From assembly GCA_047601445.1 (NCBI GenBank), contig JASGJH010000001.1, positions 5,184,001 through 5,248,000 on the forward strand: a DNA stretch of 64,000 nt, written 5' to 3'. Origin of the DNA: Myxococcales bacterium. Lineage in GTDB: Bacteria > Myxococcota_A > Polyangia > Polyangiales > DASUME01. How positions within the stretch are numbered: position 1 is the stretch's first letter; each line of letters opens with the position of its first letter. The notes beneath the pieces are model-generated. The model made no database searches. It was given only the letters and a program-made list of their open reading frames with translations, and was not told the DNA's origin. The position numbers and the translations under genes are program-made. Positions 7,635-50,137 of this stretch are shown in pieces.

Positions 7635-7652
7635 GACGAGCGGAGAATCTAC

Positions 7653-23939: not shown

Positions 23940-25595
23940 GTGCCTCCCAAGCGCTTCGGCCCCTATGAGCTCGTGCGCCCCCTGGCGACCGGGGGAATGG
24001 CCGAGACTTTCGTGGCTGTGCGGCACGGGCCGGCGGACTTCGAGCAGCGCGTGTGTCTCAAGCGGATCCTGCCCGAGCGCGCAGGGGAACCCGCGTTCGT
24101 GGAGCAATTCCTCGATGAAGCACGGCTTTTGGCCCAGCTGCGCTGCCCGGGCATCGTGCAGGTCTATGACTTCGGGGCCGTCGAGGGCGCGTACTACATG
24201 GCGCTCGAGCTGGTGGAGGGCGCCGACCTCGAGCGATTGTGTAGTGCCTCACCAGTGGGAGACCGCATCAGTTCCGAGCTAGCGCTGTTCATCGCCACGC
24301 AGCTGCTCGTGGCGCTCGACTACGCCCACAACGCCAGCGTCCAGGACCAGCCCCTCAACATCGTCCACCGCGATATCTCACCCTCGAACATCCTGCTGAG
24401 CAGCCATGGCGACGTGAAGCTCACGGACTTTGGCATCGCCAAGTCGAGCCACAGCCGGCACAAGACCAAGACCGGACGCACCAAGGGCAAGCTCGCCTAT
24501 ATGTCGCCCGAGCAAGTGCGCGGTGAAGCGCTCGACGGGCGCAGCGACCTGTTCGCGCTCGGGGTGGTGCTCTACGAGCTCCTGGCCGGCACGCACCCGT
24601 TCGAGGCGAACACCGACCTGGCGCTGCTCCACAACATCATCACGGGCACGCGCCGACCGCTGGCGGCGGTGGTGCCCGAGCTATCGACGGACGTGACGAC
24701 GTTCGTGGAGTGCCTGCTCGCCACAGACGCCAAGGATCGTCACCCCAGCGCCGAGGCCGCGCTGGCCGCCCTCCCCACCCACGGCAGCCAGGTGGTGGCG
24801 AAGCGCGTGCTGGCGAGCAAAGTCTCGCGGTATCTGGCCACGCGGCCGGTGAAGAAGCCATTTCAGTCCCAGGTCCCGCGCAGGCTGAGGAGCGAAATCG
24901 AGGCCTACGACCAGACCCGCGATCTGCCCGTCACCCCGGAGGCGCGCGTGCGCTCCACGCTTCCCCTCGCGAATGGACGCTCCGAGCCCTCCGGCACGCT
25001 GGCGCTCGAGTCGAGTGAGGCCACCCGCGACCTGATTACGCCGAGCGCAACCCCGGAGCGCAGCTCCTCATCGCGCTCGCGGACACGGGCGGCGGTGCCC
25101 CCGCAGACCCGACGCTGGAACCAGCGCTTCAGCTTCAGCCTGGCGCTCGTGGGTTTGCTGTGTGTGGGAGCAATCTGGTTCTCGCTCGCCTCCAAGCCCT
25201 CCGCTCAACCCGCCCAGGAAAGCGCTGCTCCCACCATGCGCGGAGCTCGCCAACGCCTCTCTCAGGGCGCACCCAGCCCCGTGGCGCCCAGGCTTTCCGC
25301 GCTTCCCACGCGCGACGCCGGCCAAGGCTCCGAGAGCGACTCGGCGCACGCACCGCTCGCCGCACCGAGCCCCGCACTGGCGGCGCCTCCGACGACGCCC
25401 GAAGCAGAATCCGGCGCCCCCCAGGCTCAGGCAACCGCTGGCCAGCGCACCAAGCGCAAGCGCGCGCGCGAACCCTCTACTCCGCGGCCCGCAACCACGG
25501 ACCTCACTCAGCCCGCGCCGTCCCCGGAGTCGCCGAGACTGGCTCCCAGCGCACCGAGCCGCAGTGGCCTTGGCGTGTCGGCCGAGGACTTCTAG
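23940..25595 (+). CDS. Membrane-anchored Hanks-type Ser/Thr protein kinase
   Basis: LATGGMAE, LKRI, HRDISPSN, DFG, YMSPEQ, SDLF; one TM; Pro/Ala-rich external tail ending RSGLGVSAEDF. Confidence 0.95.
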   Translation: MPPKRFGPYELVRPLATGGMAETFVAVRHGPADFEQRVCLKRILPERAGEPAFVEQFLDEARLLAQLRCPGIVQVYDFGAVEGAYYMALELVEGADLERLCSASPVGDRISSELALFIATQLLVALDYAHNASVQDQPLNIVHRDISPSNILLSSHGDVKLTDFGIAKSSHSRHKTKTGRTKGKLAYMSPEQVRGEALDGRSDLFALGVVLYELLAGTHPFEANTDLALLHNIITGTRRPLAAVVPELSTDVTTFVECLLATDAKDRHPSAEAALAALPTHGSQVVAKRVLASKVSRYLATRPVKKPFQSQVPRRLRSEIEAYDQTRDLPVTPEARVRSTLPLANGRSEPSGTLALESSEATRDLITPSATPERSSSSRSRTRAAVPPQTRRWNQRFSFSLALVGLLCVGAIWFSLASKPSAQPAQESAAPTMRGARQRLSQGAPSPVAPRLSALPTRDAGQGSESDSAHAPLAAPSPALAAPPTTPEAESGAPQAQATAGQRTKRKRAREPSTPRPATTDLTQPAPSPESPRLAPSAPSRSGLGVSAEDF

Positions 25596-25656
25596 CGCGC
25601 GGTTCCTAAAGCCCCGTGCGCTCGCGACGCTCCGCATCCAGAGTCGACGCCAGAGG

Positions 25657-27349
25657 TCATTGCGACTCGACGGCCCCGAGGTCCGGATAGTCGATGCGTA
25701 CGTGACCGCGCAGGTCGAATTCCGGCGCCGCGCTGGGGTCGGCGCGATCGATGCACGGGGACTCCGAGAGCAAGCTGACGTCGAACTGCAAGTCGACCCC
25801 GCCGTCGCTCGAACGCTCGGGTGGGTCCGCAAAGAGCGGATCGGCGTCGATGTTTCCAGTGTCGTCGGTGGTGCAGCCGCCGCCGTCAGCCTCCGTGCTG
25901 CAACCGCCTTCGAAGTCACTGTATCGGATGCTGGGTACCTTGTAGACCGCCATCACGGGACGGCCGCCGTTGTCCCAGAGGATGCTGTTGCTGATGCTGA
26001 GGTTGTTGCTGTCTGGCGTGTTGAGGTACGCCACGTCGCCTCCCAGCCGCGCCGAGTTGTTCACGAAGGTGGAGTTGACGATGGCGAGCCACGCATCCTG
26101 CCCCTCACTCGAGGCTGCACCGCCGAAGTTCTCGCTGCGGTTGTCCACGAAGATGCTGCTCACGATGTGAAGCGGGCTGAGCGTGGTGTGCAGCGCGCCC
26201 CCGTTGTCCACGCTGGCATTGCCCACGAACACGCAATCCTCGATGCGAATCCCCGGCGTATAGTCGGTCTGCATGGCCCCGCCGACGCGCGCCGTGTTGC
26301 TCACGAAGCTGCTGCCCTTGAGCTCGGGCGTCGCCCACGAGTTGGCGATGGCACCTCCGGCGGACGCCTCGTTTTCGCGAAATTCGCTGTTCTCGATGCG
26401 AGGCGAGCATCCGTAGTTGTACAAAGCGCCGCCGCCCTCGCCAGAGTTACGCACGAAGTGGCACTTGCTGAAGACGGGCGCACCGTCCCAGTTGACCACT
26501 GCCCCGCCAGTGCCGAGGCTCGTGTTCTCCACGAACCCAGTGTTGGCGAAGGCAACGCTGGAGTTCACGTTGAACACGGCGCCACCCGACTTGGCCCAGT
26601 TGCGCGTGAACACGCAGTTGGCGACCTCGGGGGATACCTCCTTGTTCAACATGCCGGCACCACTCGCCTGCGGAAATGGTAGGGCGTAGTCCTGTTGAAG
26701 CGCGGGGGCGGTGCCGTCGGCCTGACCGCCCGTGATGGTGAAGCCGTCGATGCGGGCCGAGTCGGCACCGAGCACCACGTGATAGGCATTGTCCGAGCTG
26801 TCGCCCACGACGCCGAGGTCTCCGCTGAGGATGGTGACGTTGCGCTCGAAGTCGCGATCCTTGCGCTTGCGCTCTCGCCCGGCGAAACCGCCGTAGACGG
26901 CGACACCGGTGCGCAAGACGATGCTCGCGTCGCGGCCCCCCTCGGGGCTGGGATAGTACAGGCCGCTGGCCACCCAAACTTCGCACGGCGCAGTCGCCTT
27001 GGCGGCGTCGATGCCCGCCTGGACGGTCGGGATGGCGCGCTCCCAGCTGGCGCCGCAGCCCTCCTCGCACTGCGAGCGCGCGTCCACGTACACCACGCAC
27101 TTGTCGCAGCCGATTCCGAGCGCGCATTGCGCCACCGCCGCGTCCCAGTCGTCGACCTCGCTTTCGTCGTCGCCAGCGTCGATGCCGGCATCACTCGGGT
27201 CGTCGTCCTCGGTGGGCCACTTGATGGATCCGTCCACGCACTCGACGGCGTCGCGAGATCTCGAAGCTAGGGGTGTTCAGGTTGAGCGAGCACGCGCTGG
27301 CGCACGAGGCCAGCAGGATTGCGCCCAGCGCGGTGATCTTCGAAGCCAT
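25657..27349 (-). CDS. Lipoprotein with right-handed beta-helix (Pmp-like GGA repeats); frameshifted at ~27256 (likely sequencing error)
   Basis: ATG 27349 overlaps the upstream TAA and gives MASKITALGAILLASCASAC. Removing one base joins it to the 25657..27237 ORF with FxxNxA-GGA repeats, GNIDADPLF and SPCID...DLGAVE. Confidence 0.82.
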
Positions 27350-30300
27350 TAGTCCACCCACATGGCGTTGGAGTCGTACTGCGTCACGTCACGCAGCTCT
27401 TGGGGCAAGAGCGTCGCAGGTTCTTGGTCCGGATGCTCGATGTCCCAGGAGGACAGTACGCCGTCCAGGGAGCCCAACAGATAGCGGCCCGTGCGATCGA
27501 AGGCATAGTTGCGCACGCCCTCGCCGAGGCTTCGTGCCCGTCCTACGCCGTCGAGCGAGACCGCCGACAGCATGCCGCTTTGCTCGTAGAGGACCCAACG
27601 CAACTGGGGCGAAACCAAGCGCGGCTGGAGGGGGTCCATGTAGCCAGGCACGTCGAGCAGCGAGATAGAACCACCCGACTTGAGATCGATGAGGCTGAGC
27701 ACCTTGCGGTCGCGCTTGGTCGAGCACACCACGACGTGGCTTAGATCCGTGTCCGCAGCGAACGTTGGATCGCACAGCTCCGAGATGGCGCGCACGGTGA
27801 GCTCATCGAGGTCGACCCGGTAAAGCATGTTCCCCATGGCCAACAGGTAGCTGCCATCGGCATAACTGGTCGTCGTCGCGAACGAGACGACCCAGGGTTG
27901 ATTGTTCTGGCCGGCGTCGAGCGGCACGTGAATCACGCTGTCCTTGCCACTCACCAAATCGATCACGCGCAGCCTGTCCAACGTGGTCGAATAGAGCAGG
28001 TAGCGTCCCTCGGGGGTCAACGCGTAATTGGTGGCAAAAAAGCTTGCCTGCGTGAGGGCGGCCACCGGCCGGTCGCTATCGTTTTCCAGGGGTGTCACAC
28101 GGTTCTGCCACCCGTAGTTCTGATAGATGCTGTCGACCACCACCCCGCGGCGTGCGCCACCCGGCCCGGGCGTGGCCAGCGCGCGGTAGCCACCGTCGTT
28201 GGTCTGAGGAATCACCGCCTCGGCGCTGCCGGTGCGTCGGTCGAGCCAGCGCAAGCTGCGATCTTGCATGGCCGTGAAGAGCACGCCGCGAGCACTCGGC
28301 TCGAAGATGTCCGCCGTACTGGAGTGCGCATAAGAAAAGGTCGTGGTGGCCCACGGCGCCGACTCGCTCTCTCCGTCTCGCCACGGCTCGAGGTAAGCCC
28401 CTTGGTCGGCAAGCACCGCGAGCCACGACGCGTCCTTCGCCACACGATACTGCTCCACCGTCCAGGAAGCGCGCTCGCCGTCGCTCAGGAGCGTGGTGGC
28501 GCCCTGGTCGAGGTCGGCCCGATAGAGCTGCACGTTTCCCGCCGTCGAGTAGACCCCCGTGAAGAGCACCGAGCGATGACCGGGCACCCGCACCGGCTGG
28601 TTGGTGCTCGCGCGAGCGATCGGCACGACGTCCGAGGTCCACAGGAGTTTTCCGCTCGCGAGCTCGTACTCACGCACGCCGTTGAACACCGTACTGCTCT
28701 TGCCGAAGTCCATACTCGCCTGGCTGGCCACTGCCACGCGCAAGCCATCTGCGCTGAAAGTGCGCACCGGGACGGCTCCCCCGGGCGTGCGCGCGATGCG
28801 ATCGGCGAGCACACGCGTGGAGAAGTCGCTCAGGTCCCCGAGGTACACTTGGTCGTCGCCGTCGCCATCGAGATCGCCCACGAAAGTCAGCTGCGTTCCG
28901 TCGGGACTCAGGCGCAGGTCGGATACGCGCTGGGTCGCGTCGTACTGCAGCTGCGGCGCGGGCACCGTCACGGTATCTCCGAGGCGGGTCACACGAACGC
29001 CGCTGGAGTTGTTTTCGAGAAGTACGTCGGGCGAGAGCATGTACGCCGTGTCCGGCATCGCGCCGAACTCTTCGGTGTCCAGGTCGACCAAATACTGATG
29101 CGTGGGATTCGCGTCGATGCTGCCGTAATAGACCGCCTGGCTGCAGTTCCGTCGCATGACAGGGTATTGAGTCTGCAAGGTCGGCGCTTGACTCAACTCG
29201 CGCCGCGTCGACGGCTGCAACGGGTCCTGACTCCACTCCACGACCGTAGGCTGTACCGCCCACCCACCGAACACCACGCGCCTGCCGCAGCCCGCGACGT
29301 AGCAACTTTGGCAGATCAACTCCGTGCCCGAGCCATCGTAGCGGAGCAGGGAAATCGGGTAGGTCCAGGCCCCTTGAGCCGAGTCCCACACCATGGCGGA
29401 CACCAGGACGCCGAGATCGACCTCCGCCGTCACCACCGAGCCGTAGCTGGAGTATTGGTAGAAGTAGCTGACTTGGTTCGCCAGCAACGCATCGAACGAG
29501 GTCTGCGTGAGATCGAAGATCTGAATCAGGTTGCCCTGCGAGGCCACCACGAGCTTGCCGCCGCTCGCGCTCAGCGCCCAACGCTCCGCCGCGCACAGCA
29601 CCCGAGACGTTGTCTCCGGGTGCGCTGCGTCGAAGTACAGGAGCTGTCCGTAGAGCTGGAACACGACGTCGTTGGAGCCCTGTGTGAAGAAGAACTGGAC
29701 CCATTGATTCGCGAGCAGCGCCGCCCGTTCGAGCTCACCATTCGGCCCGACCGTGAGCCAGTAGGTGCCCACGACCGCGCCGCACGCGTAGTACGCCACC
29801 GCCGAGTTCCCGTCGGGCGCCCAGGTGATTTCCTGCGGAGCACAGCCCCTCATCACCAGGGCTCGCTCCAGGCGGGGCGCCGTCGTGGGGCAGCTCATGC
29901 CGTCGCAAGCTGCGAGTGTCCAGTTCACGGAGTCGCCGACGTAGAGGCGCGTGTAGAGCGCGCCGTGCCCTGGACGATAGACCAGGGTCCCGAATTCCGC
30001 GTTGGGCTCGGCCTCCGGACTCAAGCGTCGCGCCGTCCCAGGCGCGTCGAGCGGCGTGGCGTAGAGCTGGTTCAGCAAGTCGTATCCGGCCGCGTTGGCT
30101 CGGTACACGATGCTAGGCGTGGGAAGCACCGTGATGGATACGCTCTTGGAGGCCGCCTCCGCCGCGCAGGCGAATGAGATGCGGTGCGCCCCCACCAGCG
30201 AGAAGCTCAATGTGAGCTCGCTTCCCTCCACGGTACGCACGCCGCCGCCGGGATCGACCACCTGGTAGCGCGGCGAGGGAGTCCCACCGTCGCAGTGCCC

Positions 30301-30591
30301 GCGCATGGACACCGACTCGAACAAGTAGAACTCCTGGCCCTCCGCGGGGAGCTCGGCGTCGACCTGATAGGTCCAGCTCGGCGGCGCGCTGGGTCCACCC
30401 TCGCCCGCGTCTTCGTCCTCGTCTGCCTCGTCGTCCGGCTCGCCCGCCTCGGCCGCGGCAGCGTCGCCCGCGTCGCCCCCGACGTCGACCGGACCCGCCT
30501 GGCGCCCACCGCCGTGGCAGGCCGGCATGAGCGCAACCAGCAGCGCGACGAGGAGCGCGGAGAGGTGGAGTCTCGAGCCCCGTTCAGCCAT
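27349..30591 (-). CDS. Large lipoprotein with Ig/PKD-like domain and TolB-like beta-propeller repeats
   Basis: Lipobox LMPAC, acidic linker, WAPDG/LSPDG/FSADG propeller motifs. Confidence 0.75.
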   Translation of the reverse strand: MAERGSRLHLSALLVALLVALMPACHGGGRQAGPVDVGGDAGDAAAAEAGEPDDEADEDEDAGEGGPSAPPSWTYQVDAELPAEGQEFYLFESVSMRGHCDGGTPSPRYQVVDPGGGVRTVEGSELTLSFSLVGAHRISFACAAEAASKSVSITVLPTPSIVYRANAAGYDLLNQLYATPLDAPGTARRLSPEAEPNAEFGTLVYRPGHGALYTRLYVGDSVNWTLAACDGMSCPTTAPRLERALVMRGCAPQEITWAPDGNSAVAYYACGAVVGTYWLTVGPNGELERAALLANQWVQFFFTQGSNDVVFQLYGQLLYFDAAHPETTSRVLCAAERWALSASGGKLVVASQGNLIQIFDLTQTSFDALLANQVSYFYQYSSYGSVVTAEVDLGVLVSAMVWDSAQGAWTYPISLLRYDGSGTELICQSCYVAGCGRRVVFGGWAVQPTVVEWSQDPLQPSTRRELSQAPTLQTQYPVMRRNCSQAVYYGSIDANPTHQYLVDLDTEEFGAMPDTAYMLSPDVLLENNSSGVRVTRLGDTVTVPAPQLQYDATQRVSDLRLSPDGTQLTFVGDLDGDGDDQVYLGDLSDFSTRVLADRIARTPGGAVPVRTFSADGLRVAVASQASMDFGKSSTVFNGVREYELASGKLLWTSDVVPIARASTNQPVRVPGHRSVLFTGVYSTAGNVQLYRADLDQGATTLLSDGERASWTVEQYRVAKDASWLAVLADQGAYLEPWRDGESESAPWATTTFSYAHSSTADIFEPSARGVLFTAMQDRSLRWLDRRTGSAEAVIPQTNDGGYRALATPGPGGARRGVVVDSIYQNYGWQNRVTPLENDSDRPVAALTQASFFATNYALTPEGRYLLYSTTLDRLRVIDLVSGKDSVIHVPLDAGQNNQPWVVSFATTTSYADGSYLLAMGNMLYRVDLDELTVRAISELCDPTFAADTDLSHVVVCSTKRDRKVLSLIDLKSGGSISLLDVPGYMDPLQPRLVSPQLRWVLYEQSGMLSAVSLDGVGRARSLGEGVRNYAFDRTGRYLLGSLDGVLSSWDIEHPDQEPATLLPQELRDVTQYDSNAMWVD

Positions 30592-30758
30592 GAAATTCCT
30601 CAGTTCGAGCCAGTTCAAGACAGCGGCGACAAGGCCGGAACCTTACCAGTCGATACGCCCCGGACCACGCGAACCTGGCCCGCTTCACCCCGAGCGGTGG
30701 GGCCCTGCCATGCCCCTGTTACGGCGTCACAAAACCGTGTTCTATCGCGGCATTTGGG

Positions 30759-31493
30759 GTGAGCAGTCGAGCTTTTGCGGCAGAAGCGATCCATGTGTTG
30801 ATGCACCAACGCGGGATTGCAGACGTGTCCAAAACTCATCTCCCCACAATCGAAGAGCTCATGGATCAGGCGAAGACCACGCGCATGGCAGCCCCAGGCG
30901 CGGCCACGCTCGAACGCCTGAGCGTGCACGACGCGGAGACCCGCATCGTGTCCATGACCGACACCATGCAGCTGAGCGAGCACGACCTGCACGAGACGGC
31001 CGTGCTTGCACTGCAACCCCGCAAGCCGCCGAGCGTGCCGCCGGCCGCACTGGCCTCTGCTCAATCTATCCCCTCGGCTCAGGGCCTGTCCCCGGACGTG
31101 ACGCAGCCCATGCCTGCCGGCGCGGTGCAAGATCTCTTGTCGGAGAGCTCGCCCGCCTGGAGCTACGGCGAAGTGGCGTTCCACACGCTTCACGCTGCAC
31201 CTCGCTCGAGCGACAAGCGGCGGGTCATGCTGGCGCTCACGAGCCTGCTCGCATGTCTCGTCGTGGGGCTCTGGGTATGGTCGCAGCACAAGGTCTCGGC
31301 CCAGCGTGAGGCGCGCGAACGCCGCGCGGCCGAGCTCTACGCGGCCGAGCGATTCGAGGATGCGCTCTCGCAATACCGACTCCTGGCCCACGAACATCCC
31401 GAGCTGGGCGTGTACGCGCAGACGGTGCGCATCCTGAGTGATCGCATCGGAGATCGCGGGCGCACGGCGGCTGCCGACGCTGCGTCACGGTAA
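30759..31493 (+). CDS. Hypothetical bitopic membrane protein (disordered N-terminus, one TM, TPR-like C-terminus)
   Basis: TM segment VMLALTSLLACLVVGLWVW; C-terminal AAELYAAERFEDALSQYRLLA..HP. Start uncertain. Confidence 0.6.
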   Translation: MSSRAFAAEAIHVLMHQRGIADVSKTHLPTIEELMDQAKTTRMAAPGAATLERLSVHDAETRIVSMTDTMQLSEHDLHETAVLALQPRKPPSVPPAALASAQSIPSAQGLSPDVTQPMPAGAVQDLLSESSPAWSYGEVAFHTLHAAPRSSDKRRVMLALTSLLACLVVGLWVWSQHKVSAQREARERRAAELYAAERFEDALSQYRLLAHEHPELGVYAQTVRILSDRIGDRGRTAAADAASR

Positions 31494-31639
31494 GGAGACG
31501 GGTCGGCTCGGACGCGGGGATTGCTCGTTTCGCGTCGTCGTCCAAACAGGTCACCCCTTCCCGATCTGGGCGCAAATCCAGCGCTGGGTTAGCCTGCGGC
31601 CGAGGACAGGTCTCCCAACCCGCCGTTCGATGAGCCCCC

Positions 31640-32482
31640 ATGCGTCACCACCGCGCCACGCTAGCCGTCATCATTCCCTTCACCGCGCTGGCCTTGGTTC
31701 TGGCCAGGCCCTCCAACAGCCTCGCCGAAGGCAAGGCTCGCGACCCCTACGAAGAGACCATCAGCATCGCGGTGGCCGAGTTCGAACACGGCAATTTCGC
31801 CGAGGCGCGTGAGCAATTTGCGAGAGCCCACGCCATGCAGCCCACCGCGCGTACCTTCCGGGCGCTCGGCCTGGTGAACTTCGAGCTGCGCAACTACGTG
31901 GAAGCAGCCACTATGCTCGAGCAGGCCCTGAGCTCCGCGGTAAAGCCCCTGAGCAGCCAGCACCGCTCTGAGACCGCCAAGCTCCTGGAGCGGACACGTA
32001 CCTATTTGGGGACAGTTCTACTGGACGTGGATCCGAGTACGGCCGACATCACGGTCGACGGTGCGAGCGTGCAGCTCGATGCATCGCGCACGCTGTTACT
32101 GGCCGTCGGGGAGCACTCCTTCGAGGTCACCGCGGAGGGACGACTTCCCGTGCGGCAGACCCTGAGCATCAAGGGCGGGCAAAGCGAGACCTTACACATC
32201 ACGCTCCAGCCCGTACCGGACCCGCACGCCGTGGCCGCCGCGGCGGACCCCGACCCCGCGCCCAGCCGGCCCGAGCACGGCTCTCCGCAGCGCGTGGACA
32301 CTCCGCTCTACAAAAAGTGGTGGCTCTGGACCGCAGCCGGCGTGGTGCTTGCCGCGGCGGCCACCACCACGGCGATCCTACTCACGCGCGACACGAGCAC
32401 CCACTTGGAACCCGCCCAGTCCCCGAACACACCACCCGGTGCAACCATCCAGACCCTGCAGCTCGCCGGAGGTCAGCCGTGA
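31640..32482 (+). CDS. Secreted TPR + PEGA domain protein with C-terminal hydrophobic anchor
   Basis: Signal peptide; AVAEFEHGNFAEAREQF..AH...PTARTFRALG (TPR); PSTADITVDG...GEH...TAEG (PEGA); PLYKKWWLWT. Confidence 0.88.
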   Translation: MRHHRATLAVIIPFTALALVLARPSNSLAEGKARDPYEETISIAVAEFEHGNFAEAREQFARAHAMQPTARTFRALGLVNFELRNYVEAATMLEQALSSAVKPLSSQHRSETAKLLERTRTYLGTVLLDVDPSTADITVDGASVQLDASRTLLLAVGEHSFEVTAEGRLPVRQTLSIKGGQSETLHITLQPVPDPHAVAAAADPDPAPSRPEHGSPQRVDTPLYKKWWLWTAAGVVLAAAATTTAILLTRDTSTHLEPAQSPNTPPGATIQTLQLAGGQP

Positions 32483-34803: not shown

Positions 34804-34815
34804 GACGGACATCCT

Positions 34816-35033
34816 GCCATCTGCCAATCGGCCGGCGGCCAACTACCATCTGCCATCTGCCATCTGCGATCGGCCATCCGCCATCGGCCATCCGCCATCG
34901 GCCATCGGCTTAGCGGCCATCTGCCATCGGCTTGCGGCTAGGCGGCCATCCGCCATCCGCCATCCGCCATCTGCCATCGGCCATCCGCTATCGGCTTGCG
35001 GCTAGCGGCTAGCGGCAGGCGGGTTGCGGCTGT
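34816..35033. repeat. Degenerate tandem heptamer array (GCCATC[TCG] / GCT[AT]GCG), about 30 units
   Basis: Directly visible, e.g. gccatcc gccatcg gccatcc gccatcg gccatcg; intergenic between convergent genes. Confidence 0.9.
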
Positions 35034-35040
35034 TTGCAGC

Positions 35041-35088
35041 AAAATAGAAAGGGGCCTGACGAGCACCGTCAGCGGCCCCCCTCCGTTT
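35041..35088 (-). terminator. Intrinsic terminator-like hairpin
   Basis: GGGGCC-TGACG...CGTCA-GC-GGCCCC stem with an A-tract on the + strand (U-tract for the minus-strand gene ending at 35094). Confidence 0.6.
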
Positions 35089-35093
35089 CGATC

Positions 35094-37703: not shown

Positions 37704-38000
37704 CGAGTTCCTCCTGAGTGCTTTGCTGACGCTGCGCTCCATTCGGCAGCGCACGGATGTTCGGCCCTTTCGAACCAAAACGAGCGTTCGTCGAGCGGAG
37801 CCTCGCCGGCAGAACGGAACCGACGCGCGAGTTGGGGACAGACTCCCAGGACCTTACTAACTTTATGAAAGCTTCGCCGCAACCGTCTGTTAGGGTGACA
37901 AAGCCGGCCAAAAAGTAAGACTTATCCCGAGGCGTCACCCCGCATGCAACACGCGATTGCAGCGATGACCTCTGTTTTGAACGGGGTGAGTGATTTTCTC

Positions 38001-39659: not shown

Positions 39660-39705
39660 GGGCGGTCCCGTCGTAGGTAAGGAAACAGGCCTACTTGTAC
39701 CCTGC

Positions 39706-40269
39706 TCAGCCGGGCGTGCCCAGTTCCGAGAGATCGCGCAGCGCGTCCTGAAATTTCTCGCTCTGAATGCACTTGCCCATCGCGCGCCGAATGGCGTCCT
39801 GCGCCCTCTGCATGCGATCTCCGGCGGCCTTGAGGAGGCGCTCGTTGTTGGCAGCGAGCTCCGCGGCGCTGAGACCCTTCTGAGTTTGGGCCCAACGATT
39901 CAGGTCTCGTGCGTGGGCGTCGACCGAGCCGCCGAGGGCGGTACCGAGAACATCGCAGTCCTTTTGCTCGTCCGAGAGCGCGGTCGCGATCTCATCGTAC
40001 ATCTTGAGCACGCCCTCTTCCGACTCGCTGACCGCCGGCCCCCCATGCTTACTGGCCTCCACGGCCTTGGCGAGGGCAGCTTGCAAGCTGGCTTTTTGCG
40101 GCGCCGGGGTCGTCGCAGCGGCCTGGTCGGGCTTCGCGGTGCTCGCCGCTTCCGGCGTGCTCACGGCGGCCTGCCCCGGAGCGAGGTCGACCGGCTGTCG
40201 CGAGTTCGCGAAGAAGGCGACCGCGGCGACGGCGAGCAGGGTGCTGATGGCGACGACGACTTTACGCAT
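39706..40269 (-). CDS. Hypothetical small secreted helical protein
   Basis: GAGGAG RBS, ATG 40269, signal/anchor MRKVVVAISTLLAVAAVAFFA; two Cys. Confidence 0.7.
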   Translation of the reverse strand: MRKVVVAISTLLAVAAVAFFANSRQPVDLAPGQAAVSTPEAASTAKPDQAAATTPAPQKASLQAALAKAVEASKHGGPAVSESEEGVLKMYDEIATALSDEQKDCDVLGTALGGSVDAHARDLNRWAQTQKGLSAAELAANNERLLKAAGDRMQRAQDAIRRAMGKCIQSEKFQDALRDLSELGTPG

Positions 40270-40279
40270 GGTTCTCTCC

Positions 40280-43200
40280 TCAGGGGGGCGGTTCCCAAAT
40301 CTGGCGCACGATGGCGAAGACACTGATCTCGGCGGACACTTGATACGTGCCGCCCGTGGGGAAGGTACTGGGCGGGACCCCGAACGTGGTCCGCGCATAG
40401 GTGAAGGCTCCCATGCCGGTGCTCGCGTTGGTGGTGGCCGAATAGCGGTAGAACTTGATGCCCGCATCCGCAAACTGGGCGGCCACCCAGTACGTGGTGT
40501 TCTTGTGCAGCACGGGCTTCGCGTCGGGCGTTCCGAGCGAAGAGGACCCGCCGTTGACAGTGGCAATCCCGGAGCTCGTGATCAGCGCGTCCGGAACGTG
40601 GTTGCTGCCCTCGACCTTGTCGGACCAGATCGAAAAGAATCACGCCCTGATTCGTCGCGGGAGCCGCTTGCACGAGCATGCCCATGCCCTCGAGTTTGAC
40701 CTCGACGGTCGGCCTGAAAGGTTGGGCGAAGATGCGTCCGCTGCTGATGTCCGATTGCGGGTAAACGGTGCCGCCGGTGGCCGAGTTGTGGTCGAGGTAC
40801 TTGGCGTCGTTGGTGATGCACTTGCCCACGCTGGCATCGCACAGAAGGTTGGGATACGTGCAGTTGCTGACCGGATCGTAGGTGCCGTCCGTGTCGCAGT
40901 GGTGAGCGTTGCCGCTGGAGTCGCAAAAGTCGCGCTTCTTCGGATCGTTGTAACCGCACTCACCGCGGCACTGATTGTTGTAACAGGTCAACCCGGCCGT
41001 GGTGGCCGTCGCGCAGACGCGGGAAGTCTCCATGTAGACGCAACCGTCGGAGTCTGTCTTGCACGAGCGCTCGGTGTCGCCATTGCAGCTCGGATTGGCT
41101 CCGAACGGGCAGAGGTTGTTGGTGTCGGGCTTGCAAGTGCACTTGATCCCGGTGGAGATCTCGCTGCAGTCCTGGTGCAGCCCACAGCTCCCTGACACGC
41201 AGCGCTGGAGGTCGCAGTTCTTCCCGCTCCAGCCCGCCGGGCAGCTGCAGGTATAGGTGTTGGCCGGCGTGTTGGTGCAGGGGGCGCCGTGCTGACAGGG
41301 GCTGTTCAGGCACTCGTTGATGTCTTCGCAGCCGAGGCCGTTGGAGGTGGACTGATTCCCGCTGCCGCAGGGGACACAGTTGTAGGTTCCAGCAACGTTG
41401 CTGCAGTACTTGTCCGTGCCGCACACGCTCCGGCTCGTGCACTCGTTGAAGTCCTGCTCGCACAAATCACCGACGTAACCCGTGCCCGCGCAGCCGCAGG
41501 AGAAGCCACCGCTGAAGTTGCTGCAGGAGCCACCATGCAGGCAAGGACTCGGAACCGTCGAGCACTCGTTGATGTCCTCACAGGCCAGACCGTTGGACGT
41601 GGACTGCATGCCCGTGCCGCAGGGCTCGCAAGAGGAACTTCCCACGGTGTTGACGCAGCGCTTGCTATTGCCGCACACGCTGCGACTGGTGCACTCGTTG
41701 AAGTCGTTCTCGCAGCGGTTGCCCGTGTAGCCGGTACCCGCGCAGTCGCACGTATAGCTGCCGGCCGTGTTGGTGCAGGCCCCACCGTGCAAGCACGAGT
41801 TGGTGGGATTGCACTCGTCGTTGTCCGTGCAGGTGACGCCGTTGCCGCTATAGCCGGTCTTGCACGTGCATGTAAAAGAGCCGTCGGTGTCGGCGCAAGT
41901 AGCGTTGGCCGAGCAGTTGTTGCCGCCGCCTGCCGCGCACTCGTTCTTGTTGGTGCAACCCGTGCCGCCCGCGTTGGTGCGGACACCGTTGCCCGTGTAG
42001 CCGGTGCGGCAACCGCACTGGAAGTTGGCGCCGCCGGTAGAGGTGCAGGTGCCGTTGCTGGCGGTGTCGACGCAGTTGTCCTGATCTGCTTCGCAGGCGC
42101 CCGACAATGTACAGGTGGGCCGGCCGTCCGCGCCGATGGTCTGCGTATACCCGGCCTGGCAGGTGCACGCATAGGAGCCATTGGTGTTGGAAGAGCACGT
42201 GCCCTTGGAGCCGCAGTTGTGGGTCCCGCGGCTGCACTCGTCGATGTCGACGCAGTTCAAGCCGTCCGACGAGGCCTCGAAGCCAGTGCCGCACAGATCA
42301 CACGAGTAGCTGCCCGCCGTATTGGTGCACTTGCGATCATTGCCGCAGACCGCGCGCCCAGTGCACTCGTTCACGTCGCTGTCGCAGATCGGTGTCCCCG
42401 TCCAGCCGGTGTTGCAGAAGCAGGAGAATCCGTTGACCTGATCGCTGCACGTGCCGTGCACGCATGGATTGGGGGAACAGTCGTTGCTGTTCTGACAGCT
42501 GAGCCCCATCGGCCCGAGCATGTATCCGGGCACGGTGCAGCTACAGGAGTAGGAGTTCACCCCGTCCACGCAGGAGCCGCCCGGGGTGCAGGCGTTGGAC
42601 GGACAATCGTTGACGGGCGACTGGCACTGATCGCCCATGAAACCGGTGCCGTTGCAATCGCAGGAGAAGCCAGGCGCCTGGTCGGTGCAGGTGCCGTGCG
42701 CGCACGGGCTGGTCGGGTGGCACGCGTCCGGATCGGTCTCGCAGAGCTTGCCTTCATAGCCAGGTCGGCACTGGCACGTCACCGAGCCGAGGCCGTCGGT
42801 GCAGGTGCCGTTGTTCTTGCATGGATTGGTGGGCTTGCAGTCGTCGGGGTTGACGCACGTTCCGCCCTGGTCGACGTAGCCCGTATTGCACACGCACTCG
42901 CGCAGCGTGCCCGTGACCTTGCAGGTTGCGTGGGGGTCGCAGTCGAGCTGCTCGCACTCGGAATCGAACTCGCAGGAGTTGAGCCCGTCACCGATATACG
43001 CAGGCAAGCAAGCGCACTTCGCCTCGCCGTCCACGATGGAACAGGTGGCCACTTGCTCCAGGCACCCCTTGAGCTGGCACTTGTCGACGCACTCGCTGCC
43101 GTCGCCATGGACGTCCGCGTAGCCGCTGTCGCAGGTGCACGTGTGGCCGCCCAGGGTATTGCCGCAGCGGGCGTTGGGACCGCAGCCGCCCCCCTCGAGC

Positions 43201-43661
43201 TGGCACTCGTCGATGTCCTCGCACACGCCATCGACGAACTCGTAGCCCGTGTTGCATACGCAGCCCGAGCCGCCATCCACGAAGGCGCATTTGGCGTTGG
43301 CATCGCACAGGAGGCCGCTGCAGTCGGGCGTGGCCTCGGCGTCGGGAGCGGCATCGACCAGGGCCGCGTCGAAGCTCGCATCCGTGGATGCATCCATGGA
43401 CGCATCCATGTCGGGTCCGCCGGAGTCCGGCGTGCGTGCGGGCTGACATCGGCCCGCCACGCAGAGCTCGCCGGCAATGCACTCCATGTGTGAGTCGCAG
43501 GGACAGGGCTCCTCGCCGCAGGCCGAGAAGCGCGCTTGATCGACGCTTCCTTCCTCGATGCCGAGCACGAGATTGCAGCCCTGGGCGCCCGCCAGCACGA
43601 CGAGCCAAACCATCTGCAGCGTCAGCCAGACGGTTCGCCCCCGCCGTCCCTGGAAGCTCAC
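40280..43661 (-). CDS. Lipoprotein with about 17-18 EGF/calcium-binding EGF repeats and a C-terminal beta-sandwich domain; frameshifted at ~40638 (likely sequencing error)
   Basis: GTG 43661 overlaps the upstream stop; lipobox AQGC; DIDEC/DINEC/DFNEC repeats; the C-terminal domain matches that of 32479..34803 across the frameshift. Confidence 0.88.
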
Positions 43662-44734
43662 CACGTGGCCTCCCAGCGCGCACCCGCGAAGCCCGGCGCA
43701 AGCTCGGGTCGCAAGTGTGAGAGGGCCGCGGGTTTGGCCTCGTCTCGCTTGGCGGTAGGCCAAAAGTACAGGAAGGCTCCCGCTGCGATGGCCGCGCCCG
43801 CGATCGCGAACGTCACGGTGGCTCCATTGGCCAGGCGCAGCGCGTGGTCGTTGGTGCGCTTGGCGGCTTGGCTCGGGCACGAGCCGTGGTCACAGCCCGA
43901 CTGATCGTTCTTCTGCTTGGCCAGCACCCCCAAGGTGACACCGGCGGCCAGACTCGCGACGCCCACCGCGGCGGACACCAGGCCTGCCTTGCGTCGAATA
44001 CTCAGGCCGGCGCGCGGAGGCCGAGTGGGCTCGACACTCTTGTCTGGCTGCGGGGTGGACGGCTTCGGCGTGACCACGACCTGCGGCTCTGCGGGCGCGT
44101 TCGGCTTGAGCGCGATGTTGATCACGGCATCTTCGCGAGGCTTGATCGAAAGCCTGCGCGTCTCGTCCTGGTAGCCCGGGGCGCTGACCGTAAGCTCGTG
44201 GTTGCCCGGGTCGAGCAGCACCTTGCCGTCGACGAACACGGGCGCCGCCAGGTCGATCTTGATCTCCGCATCGGTGGGCGTGACCTCGAAGACGAAGCTG
44301 CCCACGAAAGAACGAGCTCGCCCGATGACGTCGGCGAGCTTCTTGCGCTCGTCGTCGTTGAGAGGCTTACGAGTATCCTCGAGGGCCTTGGTCAGGTAGA
44401 CCAGGGAAGCCACGTAGCTCTTCTCCTCGAAGGCACACAGACCCATCGCGCGAAACGTGCGAGCGCTGGGCGAGAGTTCATGGGCGCGCTCGAAGAGGGC
44501 GCGGGCCTCGGTCCAGTTGCCTAGCTCGAACTCGGCCACGGCCTGGCGCAGGATCTTCTGGAAGTTCGCCTGCTCCGCCGTCTCGGGAGCCTTGCGCTTC
44601 GTTCCACTCTCGGCGCGCGCGCCCGAGGGCGTGCCTCGACCTTCAGCAGACGCTGTCTGCCAGGGAGCCAAGCCCAGGGTTAACACCAGTCCCAGCTGCA
44701 GCAGCACGCCACGCCACGTGCGCGTGAACTTCAC
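43658..44734 (-). CDS. Secreted TPR + PEGA domain protein
   Basis: Signal peptide after GTG 44734; AVAEFELGNWTEARALFERAH..PSARTFRAMG; PEGA; two hydrophobic helices; C-terminal GARWEATW. Confidence 0.88.
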   Translation of the reverse strand: MKFTRTWRGVLLQLGLVLTLGLAPWQTASAEGRGTPSGARAESGTKRKAPETAEQANFQKILRQAVAEFELGNWTEARALFERAHELSPSARTFRAMGLCAFEEKSYVASLVYLTKALEDTRKPLNDDERKKLADVIGRARSFVGSFVFEVTPTDAEIKIDLAAPVFVDGKVLLDPGNHELTVSAPGYQDETRRLSIKPREDAVINIALKPNAPAEPQVVVTPKPSTPQPDKSVEPTRPPRAGLSIRRKAGLVSAAVGVASLAAGVTLGVLAKQKNDQSGCDHGSCPSQAAKRTNDHALRLANGATVTFAIAGAAIAAGAFLYFWPTAKRDEAKPAALSHLRPELAPGFAGARWEATW

Positions 44735-44992
44735 CTGGCGCGATCGCTTCCCCCGAGGCGATGCCAAAGATGAGCCGCATACGCTGCGGAAGAGCCACGT
44801 GTGCATAGCGCGGCGAAGCTATCCGTAGCTGTCTTACACCGCAATGCATGTTGAGGGTGATCGCGGGCCAACGCGCGCTGCGTGAGCCGACGCGACAATC
44901 ACGCGCGATGCTGCGCGTTCGCGGCGTCTGACACTCATACGAGTGTCAGGTTTTCTGGAACGGGAGGCGGCTCAGCGGACTCGAGCAAACAC

Positions 44993-45949
44993 TCAGAAGC
45001 GACCGGTAACGCCCGCACCCCAGGGATTCACGTAGAACGCGGTGGACGGCTTGTCGCCTTCCGTGCGCCTGCCCTCGACGAACCAAGCCGCGACGGCGCC
45101 GGCCAACAGCGCACCAGCTACACCGAAGGAGACGTTCGCCCCAAGCTGCATGCCTTGCCCCTCCGACTTGAGTGACCCGCACGAGTCGCCATTCTTCTGA
45201 CACGCCTTGAAGTCGTCGTTCTTCCCGCTCGCGACCACCCCGAGTGCGATGCCGATGCCGCCTGCGGCGATCGCGCTGCCGCCGAGCACCCAGGTCCAGA
45301 TGCGCGGCTTGCGTGCACTCGTCGGCTCCGTGGTCGGTCCCTGACTGGTAGGCGTGGCGAGTTGAACCACGGCGGTAGGTTCGGGCTCGTTGCTGCCAGC
45401 GACCCGCAGCTCGATCGAGAGCTGCTCGCGGCGCGGCTCCACGATTTGCAGATCCTGGCGTGCCTCTTGGTAGCCCGCGGCGCGCACGACCACACTGTGA
45501 TTGCCTGGGTCCAGGAACAGCTGGCCATCGCGCAGGGAGGCCGCCTTGCCATCGACCAACACCTCGGCATCCGCCGGGGTCACCGACACCTGATAGACCG
45601 CCACGAACTCGCGCGCCCGGGCGAGCAGCTGGCTGACCTCTTCACGCGCCTTGGCGTTCAGGGGCTTGCGGTTGTCGGCCAGGGCCGCCTCGAGCTCGGC
45701 GATGGCGTCCACGTAGCGGCGGAGCTCGAAGGCCGTGAGCCCGAGGCTGCGCCAGGTGCGGGCGTTGGGGTTGAGGTTGTGCGCTTGCTGGAAGAGCACT
45801 CGGGCCTCCACCCAGTTGCCAGCGTCGAACTCCGCGACAGCACGCTTGATCACCGCGGTGTACTCGGAAGATTCCTGAGCCAGGGACGGGGACGGGCTCG
45901 CAAGGGCCGCACAGACGACGACGAACAGAACAGCAAAGAGGGCGCGCAT
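44993..45949 (-). CDS. Secreted TPR + PEGA domain protein
   Basis: Signal peptide; AVAEFDAGNWVEARVLF..AH..PNARTWRSLG; PADAEVLVDG...PGNH...AAGY; C-terminal GAGVTGRF. Confidence 0.9.
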   Translation of the reverse strand: MRALFAVLFVVVCAALASPSPSLAQESSEYTAVIKRAVAEFDAGNWVEARVLFQQAHNLNPNARTWRSLGLTAFELRRYVDAIAELEAALADNRKPLNAKAREEVSQLLARAREFVAVYQVSVTPADAEVLVDGKAASLRDGQLFLDPGNHSVVVRAAGYQEARQDLQIVEPRREQLSIELRVAGSNEPEPTAVVQLATPTSQGPTTEPTSARKPRIWTWVLGGSAIAAGGIGIALGVVASGKNDDFKACQKNGDSCGSLKSEGQGMQLGANVSFGVAGALLAGAVAAWFVEGRRTEGDKPSTAFYVNPWGAGVTGRF

Positions 45950-46151
45950 GGGGTCTCCTGAGGACTGCGCCTACCTATTCGCTCAGGGAGAGTCAAGGAT
46001 GGTCGGGGTGACCGCTCCCAGGGCAGGACATCCTGCAGGAAAACCTGCGGGGGAGATCACCAGGCAGACCGGAACGCCGTCCAGGGTTCACCCCTTCTTT
46101 TCTCGTTGCCGCCCCAGACAGCCAAGCATACTCAGGCTCTTGAGGTTTCCC

Positions 46152-46730
46152 ATGAAACTCAGGCTCCTGCTCGCCCTGGCCTCGTCGCTGGCCTTCGTCC
46201 CGATCGCAAGCTCGATCGGCCAGGCCCAAGACTCCGGCTCCCCTGCCCAGCAAGTGGCCAGCGCGCCGCCGGCGGCCAGCCGGGCCAGCGGGGTACGGGT
46301 CACGGTGGTGGTCGAGTCCGAACAGGCCGGCATCGCCCAACGCTTGCGAGAGGCGCTCGCGCATCAGTCCGGCGTTCAAGTGAGCGGACTCGAAGAGGCT
46401 TTGAACGAGGGCAGCCAAGCTCCGCGCGTGCTGCTCACGGTATCGCGCGGCGCGCAGGGGAGCGTCAACGTGGTGTATTGGGACAGCACCGGGAAGGTGG
46501 AGGCGTTGTCCGCCCCGCTGCCCGCTGCCGAGGGCGGCTTCGAGCTGGTGGCGTCCACGCTGGGCTCGGCGCTGTTGAGCCGCAACCTGCCGCGTTTCAA
46601 CGCCCAGGGCGACTCGGGAGACTGCACGAGCTGCGAGTTCAAGCGTCTGGTCGCTGACTTGCGCGCGCACGCCATGAACATGGTGCCGGTCCGCAGGCGT
46701 ACGTTTCCAATCAGCCTCGACGACTTTTGA
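46152..46730 (+). CDS. Hypothetical secreted protein ending in RRRTFPISLDDF
   Basis: GAGG RBS; signal peptide MKLRLLLALASSLAFVPIASSIGQA; CTSC; directly upstream of a kinase. Confidence 0.7.
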   Translation: MKLRLLLALASSLAFVPIASSIGQAQDSGSPAQQVASAPPAASRASGVRVTVVVESEQAGIAQRLREALAHQSGVQVSGLEEALNEGSQAPRVLLTVSRGAQGSVNVVYWDSTGKVEALSAPLPAAEGGFELVASTLGSALLSRNLPRFNAQGDSGDCTSCEFKRLVADLRAHAMNMVPVRRRTFPISLDDF

Positions 46731-46955
46731 GCTCACCCCGCCCCGCATCCAGACGGCACGAGTCAGCCGAGTCATGTCGCGCGTGCGGCGAGTGGTTCGC
46801 TTGGCGTGAGGCAGGTCTCAAGACAGAGCTTTTCCTCTTTCTCTCACCCCAAACACTCGCTGATCTTACGGCCTCAGCTAGTATCCTGCCGAGCAGCTGC
46901 AGAGAGTTCGGTCCGCACGGCCGAATGCACCTCCAGCGGGCTGCGTAAGAACCTC

Positions 46956-48533
46956 ATGCAACACGATGCCCTCCCGAGCGTTGGTGATACCGTCGGCAAC
47001 TATCAGGTGCTGCGGCGCATCGGTGCAGGCGGCATGGGCGTGGTCTTCGAGGCTCTCAACGTCGATACCGATGGCAAGGTCGCGCTCAAGTTCCTGAGCC
47101 CGGAGCTCTTGAACAATCCCGAGGCGGTCAAACGCTTCCGGCTCGAAGCAAAGGCCACCGGGCGCATTCAGCACCCCAACGTAGTCGCCGTGCACAACAT
47201 CGGAGAACACCGCGGCCAGCTCTACCTGGTGATGGAGTTCCTGCGCGGGCGCTCGCTGCGCGAGGAGCTCTCCAAGGGCCTGTTCGACGTGGCCCGTGCC
47301 CTCGAGGTGATGTTCCCGGTCATGCGCGGCGTGGCCGCGGCCCACGCGGTGGGTGTTCTGCACCGGGATCTCAAGCCCGAGAACATCTTCCTGGCCGAGT
47401 CGCCGGACGGCCTGGCCCCCATCCCCAAGGTGCTCGACTTCGGCATCGCCAAGCTCACGTCGGAGGTCGAAGGCACCCACGGCGGCGCGTCGGCGCGCAC
47501 GGCCTTCATGGGGACCTACCAGTACATGGCCTTCGAGCAGCTGCACGCGCGCAAGGACCTCGACGGCCGCGTCGACGTGTACGCGCTGGGCACCGTGCTC
47601 TACCACGTCGTGACGGGCGCTTTGCCCTATCGCGCCGACAACCCGGTCGACCTGGCGTTGGCGATGCTGCAGTCGGACCCGATGCCCGCCAACTACTACA
47701 CCCCGTCTTTGCCCGAGGGCTTTTCGGAGGTGCTCAACATGGCCCTGGCGCGCGACCGCGACCAGCGCTTCCCCGACATCGAGGCCTTCGCCCAGGCGCT
47801 CACGCCCTACGCCAACGGCGGGGTCTACAAGGGCTCCGGCGACTCGCGCCCGCTGCGCGCACCCGGTCCCCACGCGAGCCACAAGACGCCCGCGCCGGGC
47901 GCCTTCACGCCTCCGCCGCGCAGCCCCGACTCGGGCCGCGTGCCGGGTGTCTTCTCGAGCCCCACGCCCTTCGTGGTGCGCAAGGACTACGACGACACGG
48001 CTCCCCCGCGTCCCCAGCGCTCCTCGGGGCTCTTGTGGATCGGCGGTTCCACCGTGGCGGCTGCGCTCGGCTTTGCGGGCTACATGTTCCTGCGTCCGGC
48101 GAACGTCGCGCCGCCACCCCTGCCTACCGCCCCAGCGGCCCAGGCCGAGCGTCCTGGTGTGCCCACCTCGCCGGTATCGGCCGCCATGCCGCGCGCAGCC
48201 CTACCGGCCGACGCAGGCGCCGAAAACGACGACTGGGCAGCCGCGGGGCAGGGAAGCGCCGCGCCACAGCTCCAGGCGCCGCCTCAGCTCCAACCTCAGC
48301 GGGTCGAGCAGCAGCCGACCGAGACGCGAGGTAGCAATACCCCGGAGCTCGCCATCGACCCACGTGCGGGCCAGCCGGAGCACAGCCGTCAGCGGCCGTC
48401 GACTCAGCAGCCGCGGGAGACGACGAGTTCGAGCCACGAGCGCACGAGTCGTCCGCGGCGCGAGACGCAGGGGACGTCCGAGGGCGCACCGCGCACGCGC
48501 AGCGGCCTGGGCGTGTCGTCGGAGGAGTTCTGA
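46956..48533 (+). CDS. Membrane-anchored Hanks-type Ser/Thr protein kinase
   Basis: IGAGGMGVV, VALK, HRDLKPEN, DFG, YMAFEQ (atypical APE), VDVY; one TM; tail ending RSGLGVSSEEF. Confidence 0.95.
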   Translation: MQHDALPSVGDTVGNYQVLRRIGAGGMGVVFEALNVDTDGKVALKFLSPELLNNPEAVKRFRLEAKATGRIQHPNVVAVHNIGEHRGQLYLVMEFLRGRSLREELSKGLFDVARALEVMFPVMRGVAAAHAVGVLHRDLKPENIFLAESPDGLAPIPKVLDFGIAKLTSEVEGTHGGASARTAFMGTYQYMAFEQLHARKDLDGRVDVYALGTVLYHVVTGALPYRADNPVDLALAMLQSDPMPANYYTPSLPEGFSEVLNMALARDRDQRFPDIEAFAQALTPYANGGVYKGSGDSRPLRAPGPHASHKTPAPGAFTPPPRSPDSGRVPGVFSSPTPFVVRKDYDDTAPPRPQRSSGLLWIGGSTVAAALGFAGYMFLRPANVAPPPLPTAPAAQAERPGVPTSPVSAAMPRAALPADAGAENDDWAAAGQGSAAPQLQAPPQLQPQRVEQQPTETRGSNTPELAIDPRAGQPEHSRQRPSTQQPRETTSSSHERTSRPRRETQGTSEGAPRTRSGLGVSSEEF

Positions 48534-50116: not shown

Positions 50117-50137
50117 GCGCTCGCGCTGCTGCGCCGT

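Follow-up and report, generated by a model that had tools for sequence, protein, structure and literature searches.

A patchwork of kinase, TPR-PEGA and lipoprotein modules in a myxobacterial genome suggests split receptor kinases addressed by their C-terminal tails

The locus analysed here lies in a 64-kb window (the whole stretch of 64,000 nt, positions 5,184,001 to 5,248,000 of contig JASGJH010000001.1) of a Myxococcales genome of 9.5 Mb, which consists of one contig (labelled G000:C1) and in which a simple gene caller found 7264 genes. A first-pass annotation had drawn attention to a 25-kb block bounded by two membrane kinases, and both of them are present with intact HRD and DFG motifs. 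K1 (23940-25595, + strand; Pfam Pkinase E 5e-42) and K2 (46956-48533, + strand; E 1.5e-43) have the properties of Hanks-type membrane Ser/Thr kinases, namely a Pkinase domain with the Lys, HRD and DFG elements and one transmembrane helix, located around residue 399 in K1. Their stalks (134 aa in K1, 148 aa in K2) are low-complexity and Cys-free, and both proteins end in a tail of the ..[DE]F class. The last 11 residues of the two kinases are nearly identical and 29 of the final 36 nt are the same; their kinase domains belong to different clades of the kinase tree (FastTree). The stalk length of the kinases found in such modules is uniform, about 100-165 aa. Judged from their sequences, the module kinases have no folded sensor and carry a flexible periplasmic stalk which ends in a tail of 10-11 residues.

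Between the kinases stand three TPR-PEGA genes with the shared motif given in the annotation: TP1 (31640-32482, + strand), TP2 (43658-44734, - strand) and TP3 (44993-45949, - strand). They had been taken as one kind, and the motif is indeed common to all of them, but they represent two architectures. TP1 is a short form, composed of a signal peptide, TPR, PEGA, a linker, a single hydrophobic helix and a tail of about 27 aa. TP2 and TP3 are long forms with a helical hairpin and a C-terminal beta-hairpin; TP2 has a Cys pair in the loop of the helical hairpin and W as its last residue, and in the model of TP3 the TPR (28-113), the PEGA domain (117-180), the helical hairpin (217-293) and the beta-hairpin (302-317) follow each other, with F as the last residue. 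The two GTGA overlaps between TPR-PEGA and lipoprotein genes were seen in the DNA. They couple TP1 to a Cys-rich lipoprotein (32479-34803, + strand; 58 Cys in 774 aa; predicted beta-sandwich at residues ~30-130) and TP2 to a calcium-binding-EGF repeat lipoprotein (40280-43661, - strand; 135 Cys in a 1167-aa open frame; EGF_CA E 6.8e-37) with a one-base frameshift near 40639, ahead of the final ~119 residues. Both have lipoboxes and they share a C-terminal domain. Two genes were overlooked by the first-pass annotation: a secreted 192-aa non-kinase with a kinase-type tail (46152-46730, + strand), a candidate decoy or soluble ligand, which lies between TP3 and K2, and tssK (48749-50116, + strand), the sole copy in the genome.

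The genome encodes 32 TPR-PEGA paralogs and 149 kinases. A kinase was found within 3 kb of 20 of the 32 paralogs, but of only 12% among 1500 genes drawn at random (binomial p 2e-11), and an open reading frame (ORF) with a lipobox lies directly downstream of 20 of the 32, as compared to 94 of 1000 random genes. TPR-PEGA homologs occur in all 31 genomes searched. Out-of-sample loci were picked by the TPR motif alone, which gave 79 genome loci and 80 metagenome loci from few related genera; the counts for the 79 loci are based on six-frame ORFs, the simple caller having missed 13 of them. The proposed linkage of kinase, TPR-PEGA and lipoprotein genes also holds across these other genomes. The 25-kb block did not survive as the unit, the gene order is not conserved and relatives carry the pieces in other combinations. 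In G007 the K1 ortholog (47%) adjoins the TP3 ortholog beside a type VI secretion system (T6SS) cluster, and a separate kinase-TP-TP-EGF module is located elsewhere. G001 has the arrangement tail protein-TP2-EGF lipoprotein, while in G004 the contig with the SBBP lipoprotein, the tail protein and TP3 is not the one that carries K2-tssK. What recurs as a unit is the module, and the block is a patchwork of repeated module copies.

The kinases located beside the TPR clade of the block have a tail class of their own, R-x(5-6)-x-x-[DE]-F. A pattern for this tail, which was defined after the tails had been seen, ends 12 of the 7264 genes: 11 kinases and the secreted protein at 46152-46730. Nine of the 11 kinases are situated no more than 6.1 kb from a TPR-PEGA gene. 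The three TPRs of the block fall in one clade of 14 members (support 99/97); next to other clades, other tail classes are found. In the genome loci [DEQ]F ends all of the 32 complete kinases within 3 kb (3 cut-off kinases were left out, and one of the 32, in L088, has an atypical tail), as against none of the five farther off; in the metagenome loci the tail was present in 23 of 25 kinases, 8 cut-off kinases being left out. In a control TPR clade a partner could be assigned to 17 of 26 ORFs (14 kinases and 3 stalked proteins), none of these 17 ends in [DEQ]F, and 10 of them have a penultimate Arg (counted by eye). Comparison of R64 and R67 of the TPR with the acidic DF tail in 89 pairs gave 61 pairs with both, 24 with neither, 3 with the arginines only and one with the tail only. 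This sequence co-variation supports a contact between the TPR and the kinase tail, which would be made in the periplasm.

The distribution of the tail was followed on the kinase tree, where it requires 5 changes, 4 of them forced by well-supported branches. Six loci contain non-kinase stalked membrane proteins with a ..DF tail and an unknown cytoplasmic domain beside kinase/TPR-PEGA modules (L085:2835-4724, L263:664-2418, L266:460-2211, L275:520-2148, L289:923-2509 and L295:421-2172); no Pfam match was obtained for the cytoplasmic domain in the five that were scanned. Since the tail occurs on different kinase clades, with at least 4 changes, and on non-kinase stalked proteins as well, it is a portable tag. 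Two paralogous non-kinase stalked membrane proteins with an Arg-type tail (G000:C1 2568574-2570274 and 7022068-7023789) are encoded directly upstream of control-clade TPR-PEGA genes.

The fold searches with the TP3 model and with its residues 25-140 gave 4cgu (Tah1, Z 13.9), 1elr/1elw (Hop) and 2c2l; C-terminal-peptide binders are among these matches, and TPR matches are generic. Natural fusions were of no use as binding evidence. A search for longer homologs yielded 2 unhelpful proteins, and the long open frames in 9 loci of relatives turned out to be upstream GC-rich read-through, with the exception of an N-terminally extended form in L145. The single ORF of TPR-PEGA and kinase at G000:C1 7056121-7058676 (L147) has a junction which looks out of frame and is probably an assembly indel; the junction of P0109 looks out of frame as well, and neither of the two was used.

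The two anchor forms were compared in 139 homologs of at most 420 aa, which were divided by the number of helices into 73 long and 66 short ones; the short bin contains at least one long form by mistake. The BAM beta-signal is known as a terminal aromatic residue preceded by alternating hydrophobic residues. Phe is the last residue in 68 of the 73 long forms, positions -5 and -7 are hydrophobic in 93% and 82% of them, and 58 of the 73 contain at least two Cys in the loop of the helical hairpin. In the TP3 model (pLDDT 87, pTM 0.58) two TPRs with a cap, a PEGA sandwich and a long helical hairpin are followed by a terminal beta-hairpin, one per chain; the top Foldseek match of the model is a 76-aa chain of 9k1u (E 9.7e-5, 77 columns), presumably to the PEGA domain. 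The long form has a signal peptide, judged by eye, together with the C-terminal signal and the modelled hairpin, as expected from the sequence of a BAM substrate, and its end reads as a putative BAM beta-signal with an oxidised Cys loop. The short form, of the TP1 type, has a single hydrophobic helix and no beta-hairpin. One paralog (G000:C1 2317117-2321562, L326) is a TPR-3xPEGA protein joined to a TonB-dependent receptor, and the gene directly downstream encodes a stalked kinase of a different tail class. The fusion to a barrel, with a kinase beside it, supports a role of the TPR-PEGA proteins in the outer membrane.

The form of the partner is reflected in the lipoprotein behind it. A profile was built from four lipoprotein N-domains of this genome. 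The N-domain follows the short forms in 18 of 28 cases in the genome loci and in 27 of 38 in the metagenome loci (45 of 66 together), and the long forms in none of 47 and none of 19 (0 of 66). In the present genome 7 of 10 profile matches are behind a TPR-PEGA gene, a count that includes 4 training rows. Lipoproteins behind the long forms seem instead to carry, next to the lipidated Cys, a short stretch with a hydrophobic pattern. That the N-terminus of the lipoprotein is so strictly matched to the anchor form suggests a physical contact between the partner and the lipoprotein, and the co-variation supports placing this putative contact between the C-terminus of the partner and the N-domain. 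The N-domain was modelled with confidence (pLDDT 88), and its best fold match in both searches was to pilotins: 2yjl (Z 8.8, root mean square deviation 3.1, 102 residues aligned) and 5wec, with Foldseek E values of 1.4e-3 to 3e-3 and Atlas TM of about 0.6. No Pfam YscW match was found in 24 members. If the N-domain acted as a pilot, which is no more than a lead, its need by the form lacking a beta-signal, and by no other, would be accounted for. The cargo of the lipoproteins is highly variable, and EGF repeats are one cargo type among many behind the same anchor. Thus the contact sensing with metazoan-like parts, suggested in the first-pass annotation, goes beyond the data. The last 522 nt of the EGF lipoprotein gene, read across the frameshift, match the end of the Cys-rich lipoprotein gene at 32479-34803 with 83.5% identity. 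The shared C-terminal domain (34191-34800 and 40280-40810), which has a weak choice-of-anchor R match below cut-off, goes back by this identity to a recent event of duplication or conversion.

A single T6SS is encoded in the genome, at 5.157-5.184 Mb, with genes for TagH-like protein, TssJ, L, M, A, B, C, Hcp, E, F, ClpV and VgrG. The sole tssK is not between tssJ and tssL; it is 215 bp behind K2, and tssJ-tssL lie about 73 kb upstream. K2 orthologs adjoin tssK in G004 (58-62%) and G006 too. In G002 a cut-off stalked ORF with a DF tail stands beside tssK, and in L137, whose DNA is identical with that of the G472 locus, the genes for Hcp, a lipoprotein, a DF kinase, TPR-PEGA and tssK stand in a row. 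In order to quantify the association, 38 tssK loci were taken with 1.5-kb flanks; 6 of them had no tssJ and tssL and were regarded as displaced, some being at contig ends, and 32 were canonical. A DF-tail protein or TPR-PEGA gene was found within 1.5 kb in 5 of the 6 displaced loci and in none of the 32 canonical ones. A membrane kinase genetically linked to T6SS genes, as in the PpkA-Fha-PppA pathway, is thus present in the K2-tssK pair. A third DF-tail module (kinase, lipoprotein, long TPR-PEGA, lipoprotein) was noticed at G000:C1 5147086-5152967, about 4 kb before the FHA gene of the T6SS, so DF modules are located on both sides of the T6SS. A run of T6SS accessory genes at 483-8528 of the window codes for HEAT-repeat, methyltransferase, DUF2169 and ketoacyl-synthase-like proteins and a PAAR-like protein with a Hint-like domain. 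In G007 (L044:11675-13730) three near-identical His-rich ORFs of 61-82 aa, spaced by ~900 bp, stand beside the T6SS cluster.

Homologs of the secreted tail protein were found in 3 of 30 relatives, where they adjoin TPR-PEGA or kinase genes. The terminal Asp-Phe is kept in all of the four homologs, one having an extra Gln, at 31-36% identity. The protein database contained only the protein itself, the search across 400 genomes of the class gave 4 weak matches and no convincing further homolog, and no solved structural relative was found, the Atlas matches being below 0.9. The family is rare. The simplest reading of its sequence would be a decoy or a soluble agonist.

The remaining genes of the block lie in two stretches. 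Behind K1 there are a PMP-type repeat lipoprotein (25657-27349, - strand), whose signal peptide and lipobox start at 27349 and which has a frameshift near 27260, a large lipoprotein (27349-30591, - strand) with a weak PD40 match, probably a beta-propeller and probably cargo as judged by sequence, and, ahead of TP1, a small membrane protein (30861-31493, + strand) whose C-terminal piece is short and helical. The second stretch, on the - strand, comprises a large secreted protein of no known family (35094-37706), which accompanies the modules in G004, G007 and G009, an EGF and SBBP beta-propeller lipoprotein (38001-39659) with a syntenic homolog in G004, and a small protein with a hydrophobic N-terminus and no family match (39706-40269). 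Outside the block, a peptidoglycan-binding protein is encoded at 16954-17526 of the window, homologs of which adjoin orthologs of K1/TP3 or of tail-protein/TP2 in G007 and G001, and a probable lipoprotein at 12565-15675 combines a lamin-tail domain with a PPDK_N (PEP/pyruvate-binding-like) domain. The block contains no sigma-54 site, the window having 2 matches against 5.7 expected, and no sigma-70 site was found at 45800-50300.

On this evidence we lean, with moderate confidence, toward split receptor kinases which work like TssW, RtkS or TagQR with PpkA, K2 possibly regulating the T6SS. It is quite likely, from the co-variation, that the kinase tail plugs into the TPR groove of the separately encoded TPR-PEGA protein, where the acidic, Phe-terminated tail would meet the conserved arginines. 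The TPR-PEGA protein is probably inserted in the outer membrane, the long form via its BAM-type beta-signal hairpin and the short form helped by the pilotin-like N-domain of the lipoprotein, which in turn would bring cargo of varying type (EGF, Cys-rich, propeller and others) to the surface or the periplasm. By analogy with PpkA systems, engagement of the lipoprotein, or mere clustering of the partner, may or may not, with about equal chance, be what dimerises, stabilises or positions the kinase. K2, and possibly K1 with its near-identical tail, could be the PpkA-equivalent input of the only T6SS via TagH or the baseplate, for which synteny speaks and which we regard as slightly doubtful. More tentatively, the secreted tail protein might compete for the TPR socket. 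A wider scheme is unlikely: a plug-and-socket code of the Polyangia, in which dozens of sensor-less kinases and non-kinase transducers would be tagged to clade-specific TPR sockets, two anchor routes would load interchangeable surface lipoproteins, soluble decoys would be added, and tssK, moved behind a kinase, would place T6SS firing under the licence of EGF/Cys-rich recognition.

Several observations weigh against split receptor kinases with a T6SS branch. Two of the 11 DF-tail kinases of the genome have no partner nearby, one DF-pattern kinase is paired with a TPR lacking the arginines, and a kinase stands within 3 kb in just 33 of the 79 genome loci, many contigs being short. Since the related loci were selected by motif, their counts amount to a match at the level of clades, with few independent events. 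The pilotin match barely exceeds the background, in which the best Z is typically 7-8, and its Foldseek E values are above 0.001. The Lys/Arg residues flanking the short-form helix, 2.2 before and 2.0 after it, do not decide between the two membranes. Two lipoproteins of the block are frameshifted, near 40639 and near 27260. Among 35 conserved genes in this assembly there is one that is split, so these frameshifts may be assembly errors rather than decay; a gene at G000:C1 6313137-6315702, 88-93% identical to a single G007 gene and split over two frames, is evidence of assembly indels. As for the T6SS, the FHA protein is over cut-off in Pfam FHA, but its NCBIfam TIGR03354 (TagH) match, E 5e-17, is below cut-off, and none of the 8 PP2C_2 matches of the genome lies between 5.14 and 5.25 Mb, where a PppA equivalent would be expected. 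T6SS genes occur in only 2 of the 79 clade loci, which rules out a general T6SS role for the whole TPR clade, the kinases in canonical T6SS clusters of relatives are different ones, and the linkage to displaced tssK genes could go back to one inherited rearrangement, several of these contigs ending early.

The module could also be a tether and not a receptor. The contact of tail and TPR would then be constitutive and would keep the kinase stable or in position, or register how far apart the two membranes are, and the lipoproteins would be co-expressed cargo or regulated output and not sensors. The uniform stalk length would suit such a tether, 12 of the 32 paralogs, TP3 among them, have no lipobox gene directly downstream, and according to the accessible parts of the respective papers RtkS stabilises PpkA (PMC6082577) and TssW positions it (PMC12607579). 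Against this, the N-domain is strictly confined to the short forms and the cargo is highly variable, which makes a mere tether rather unlikely. The translational coupling to the lipoprotein, the beta-signal-like end and the modules without nearby kinase would fit another function, too: TPR-PEGA could be an outer-membrane factor for export or display of the neighbouring lipoprotein, whose occupancy the kinase just monitors. Slam-like logic is the model for such a factor. The most conserved part of the protein, however, is the TPR surface which co-varies with the kinase tail, a single beta-hairpin cannot make a barrel alone, the short form has no hairpin at all, and the TonB-dependent receptor fusion needs no lipoprotein; we therefore consider this function improbable.

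The ordinary hydrophobic helices present in both forms, and the missing beta-signal of the short one, would agree with TPR-PEGA being anchored in the inner membrane beside the kinase as a co-receptor, in which case the system would not span the envelope. Two inner-membrane helices would put the conserved Cys pair (58 of 73) into the cytoplasm, and neither the terminal Phe with its alternating hydrophobic positions nor the barrel fusion is in line with this location, so it has very little probability. Finally, members of expanded families might have come together by chance at an insertion hot spot and be functionally unrelated. The families are large, with 149 kinases, and the 25-kb order is not conserved, but for the module the linkage and tail statistics refute this, and as an account of the locus it is hardly credible; for the filler genes at 25657-31493 and 35094-40269 chance is still possible.

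The literature searched, with subscription journals and supplements outside its coverage, contained no description of such a module and no paper pairing the PEGA domain with Myxococcus; the accessible part of PMC7159879 mentions PEGA for other systems only. The inputs of the many myxobacterial Ser/Thr kinases are a long-standing gap. A readable tail-to-socket code, if true, would assign partners to a large share of these kinases from sequence, and it could be tested cheaply, since a peptide of 12 residues and a TPR domain of 90 would suffice. T6SS kinases would gain a new type of input, and there would be a mixed helix/hairpin anchor in the outer membrane and possibly a pilotin-like domain whose client is not a secretin.

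Parts of the split receptor kinases have counterparts elsewhere. Carboxylate-clamp TPRs (Hop, Tah1, CHIP) bind EEVD tails. The ligand proposed here is likewise an acidic C-terminal peptide, the likeness being at the level of the fold only; unlike in those proteins, the pair would be periplasmic and the tail classes clade-specific. In FecA-FecR-FecI a periplasmic extension of an outer-membrane protein contacts the inner-membrane transducer, and the TPR-3xPEGA-TonB receptor paralog adjoining a kinase in this genome is similar to this arrangement. The output, however, is a Ser/Thr kinase and not an anti-sigma factor, the partners in the block have no barrel or plug, and Pfam and NCBIfam scans found no TonB receptor barrel or plug, FecR-type anti-sigma factor or extracytoplasmic function (ECF) sigma factor among the block proteins. 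With the pilotins ExsB/YscW and the alternative type II secretion system pilotin (PDB 2yjl, 5wec; PMC3276575, accessible part) the N-domain would share the beta-sandwich of an outer-membrane lipoprotein, as far as the model goes. It differs from them in that it carries large variable cargo and its proposed client is a single-helix TPR-PEGA protein: the gene coupled to the N-domain lipoprotein encodes a short TPR-PEGA and not a secretin.

The closest systems are those of T6SS kinases, which are described here from the accessible parts of the papers. In Acidovorax citrulli the outer-membrane protein TssW binds the periplasmic part of PpkA and positions the T6SS via an FHA protein (PMC12607579), and an outer-membrane partner of an inner-membrane Ser/Thr kinase is what is proposed here from sequence. 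The kinase of the present module, unlike PpkA, has only stalk and tail in place of a folded periplasmic domain, its partner, a TPR-PEGA protein, brings an anchor of its own and is coupled to a lipoprotein, and there are ~30 paralogs per genome, most of them far from any T6SS; PEGA and TPR are not mentioned in the accessible part of that paper. RtkS of Serratia marcescens, a periplasmic partner which binds and stabilises the T6SS kinase PpkA (PMC6082577; PDB 9k1u), is a single soluble regulator bound to the periplasmic domain of the kinase, unlike the anchored TPR-PEGA. The NCBIfam scan of TP1-3 gave no match, and no direct sequence comparison with TssW or RtkS was made. In the H1-T6SS of Pseudomonas aeruginosa, TagQRST-PpkA-Fha1-PppA connects an outer-membrane lipoprotein, a periplasmic link, an inner-membrane kinase and an FHA output (PMC10482370). 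The module would have the same succession of lipoprotein, periplasmic link, kinase and FHA output, but Pfam and NCBIfam scans found none of the TagQ/R/S/T families among the block proteins, and there is no PP2C in the region. By analogy, the module would resemble TssW-PpkA, RtkS-PpkA and TagQRST-PpkA in its working, although it would not qualify as one of them by the features which define them. The known kind would be a Ser/Thr kinase controlled across the envelope through a partner in the outer membrane; what would be new is an undescribed architecture and an address code that can be tested.

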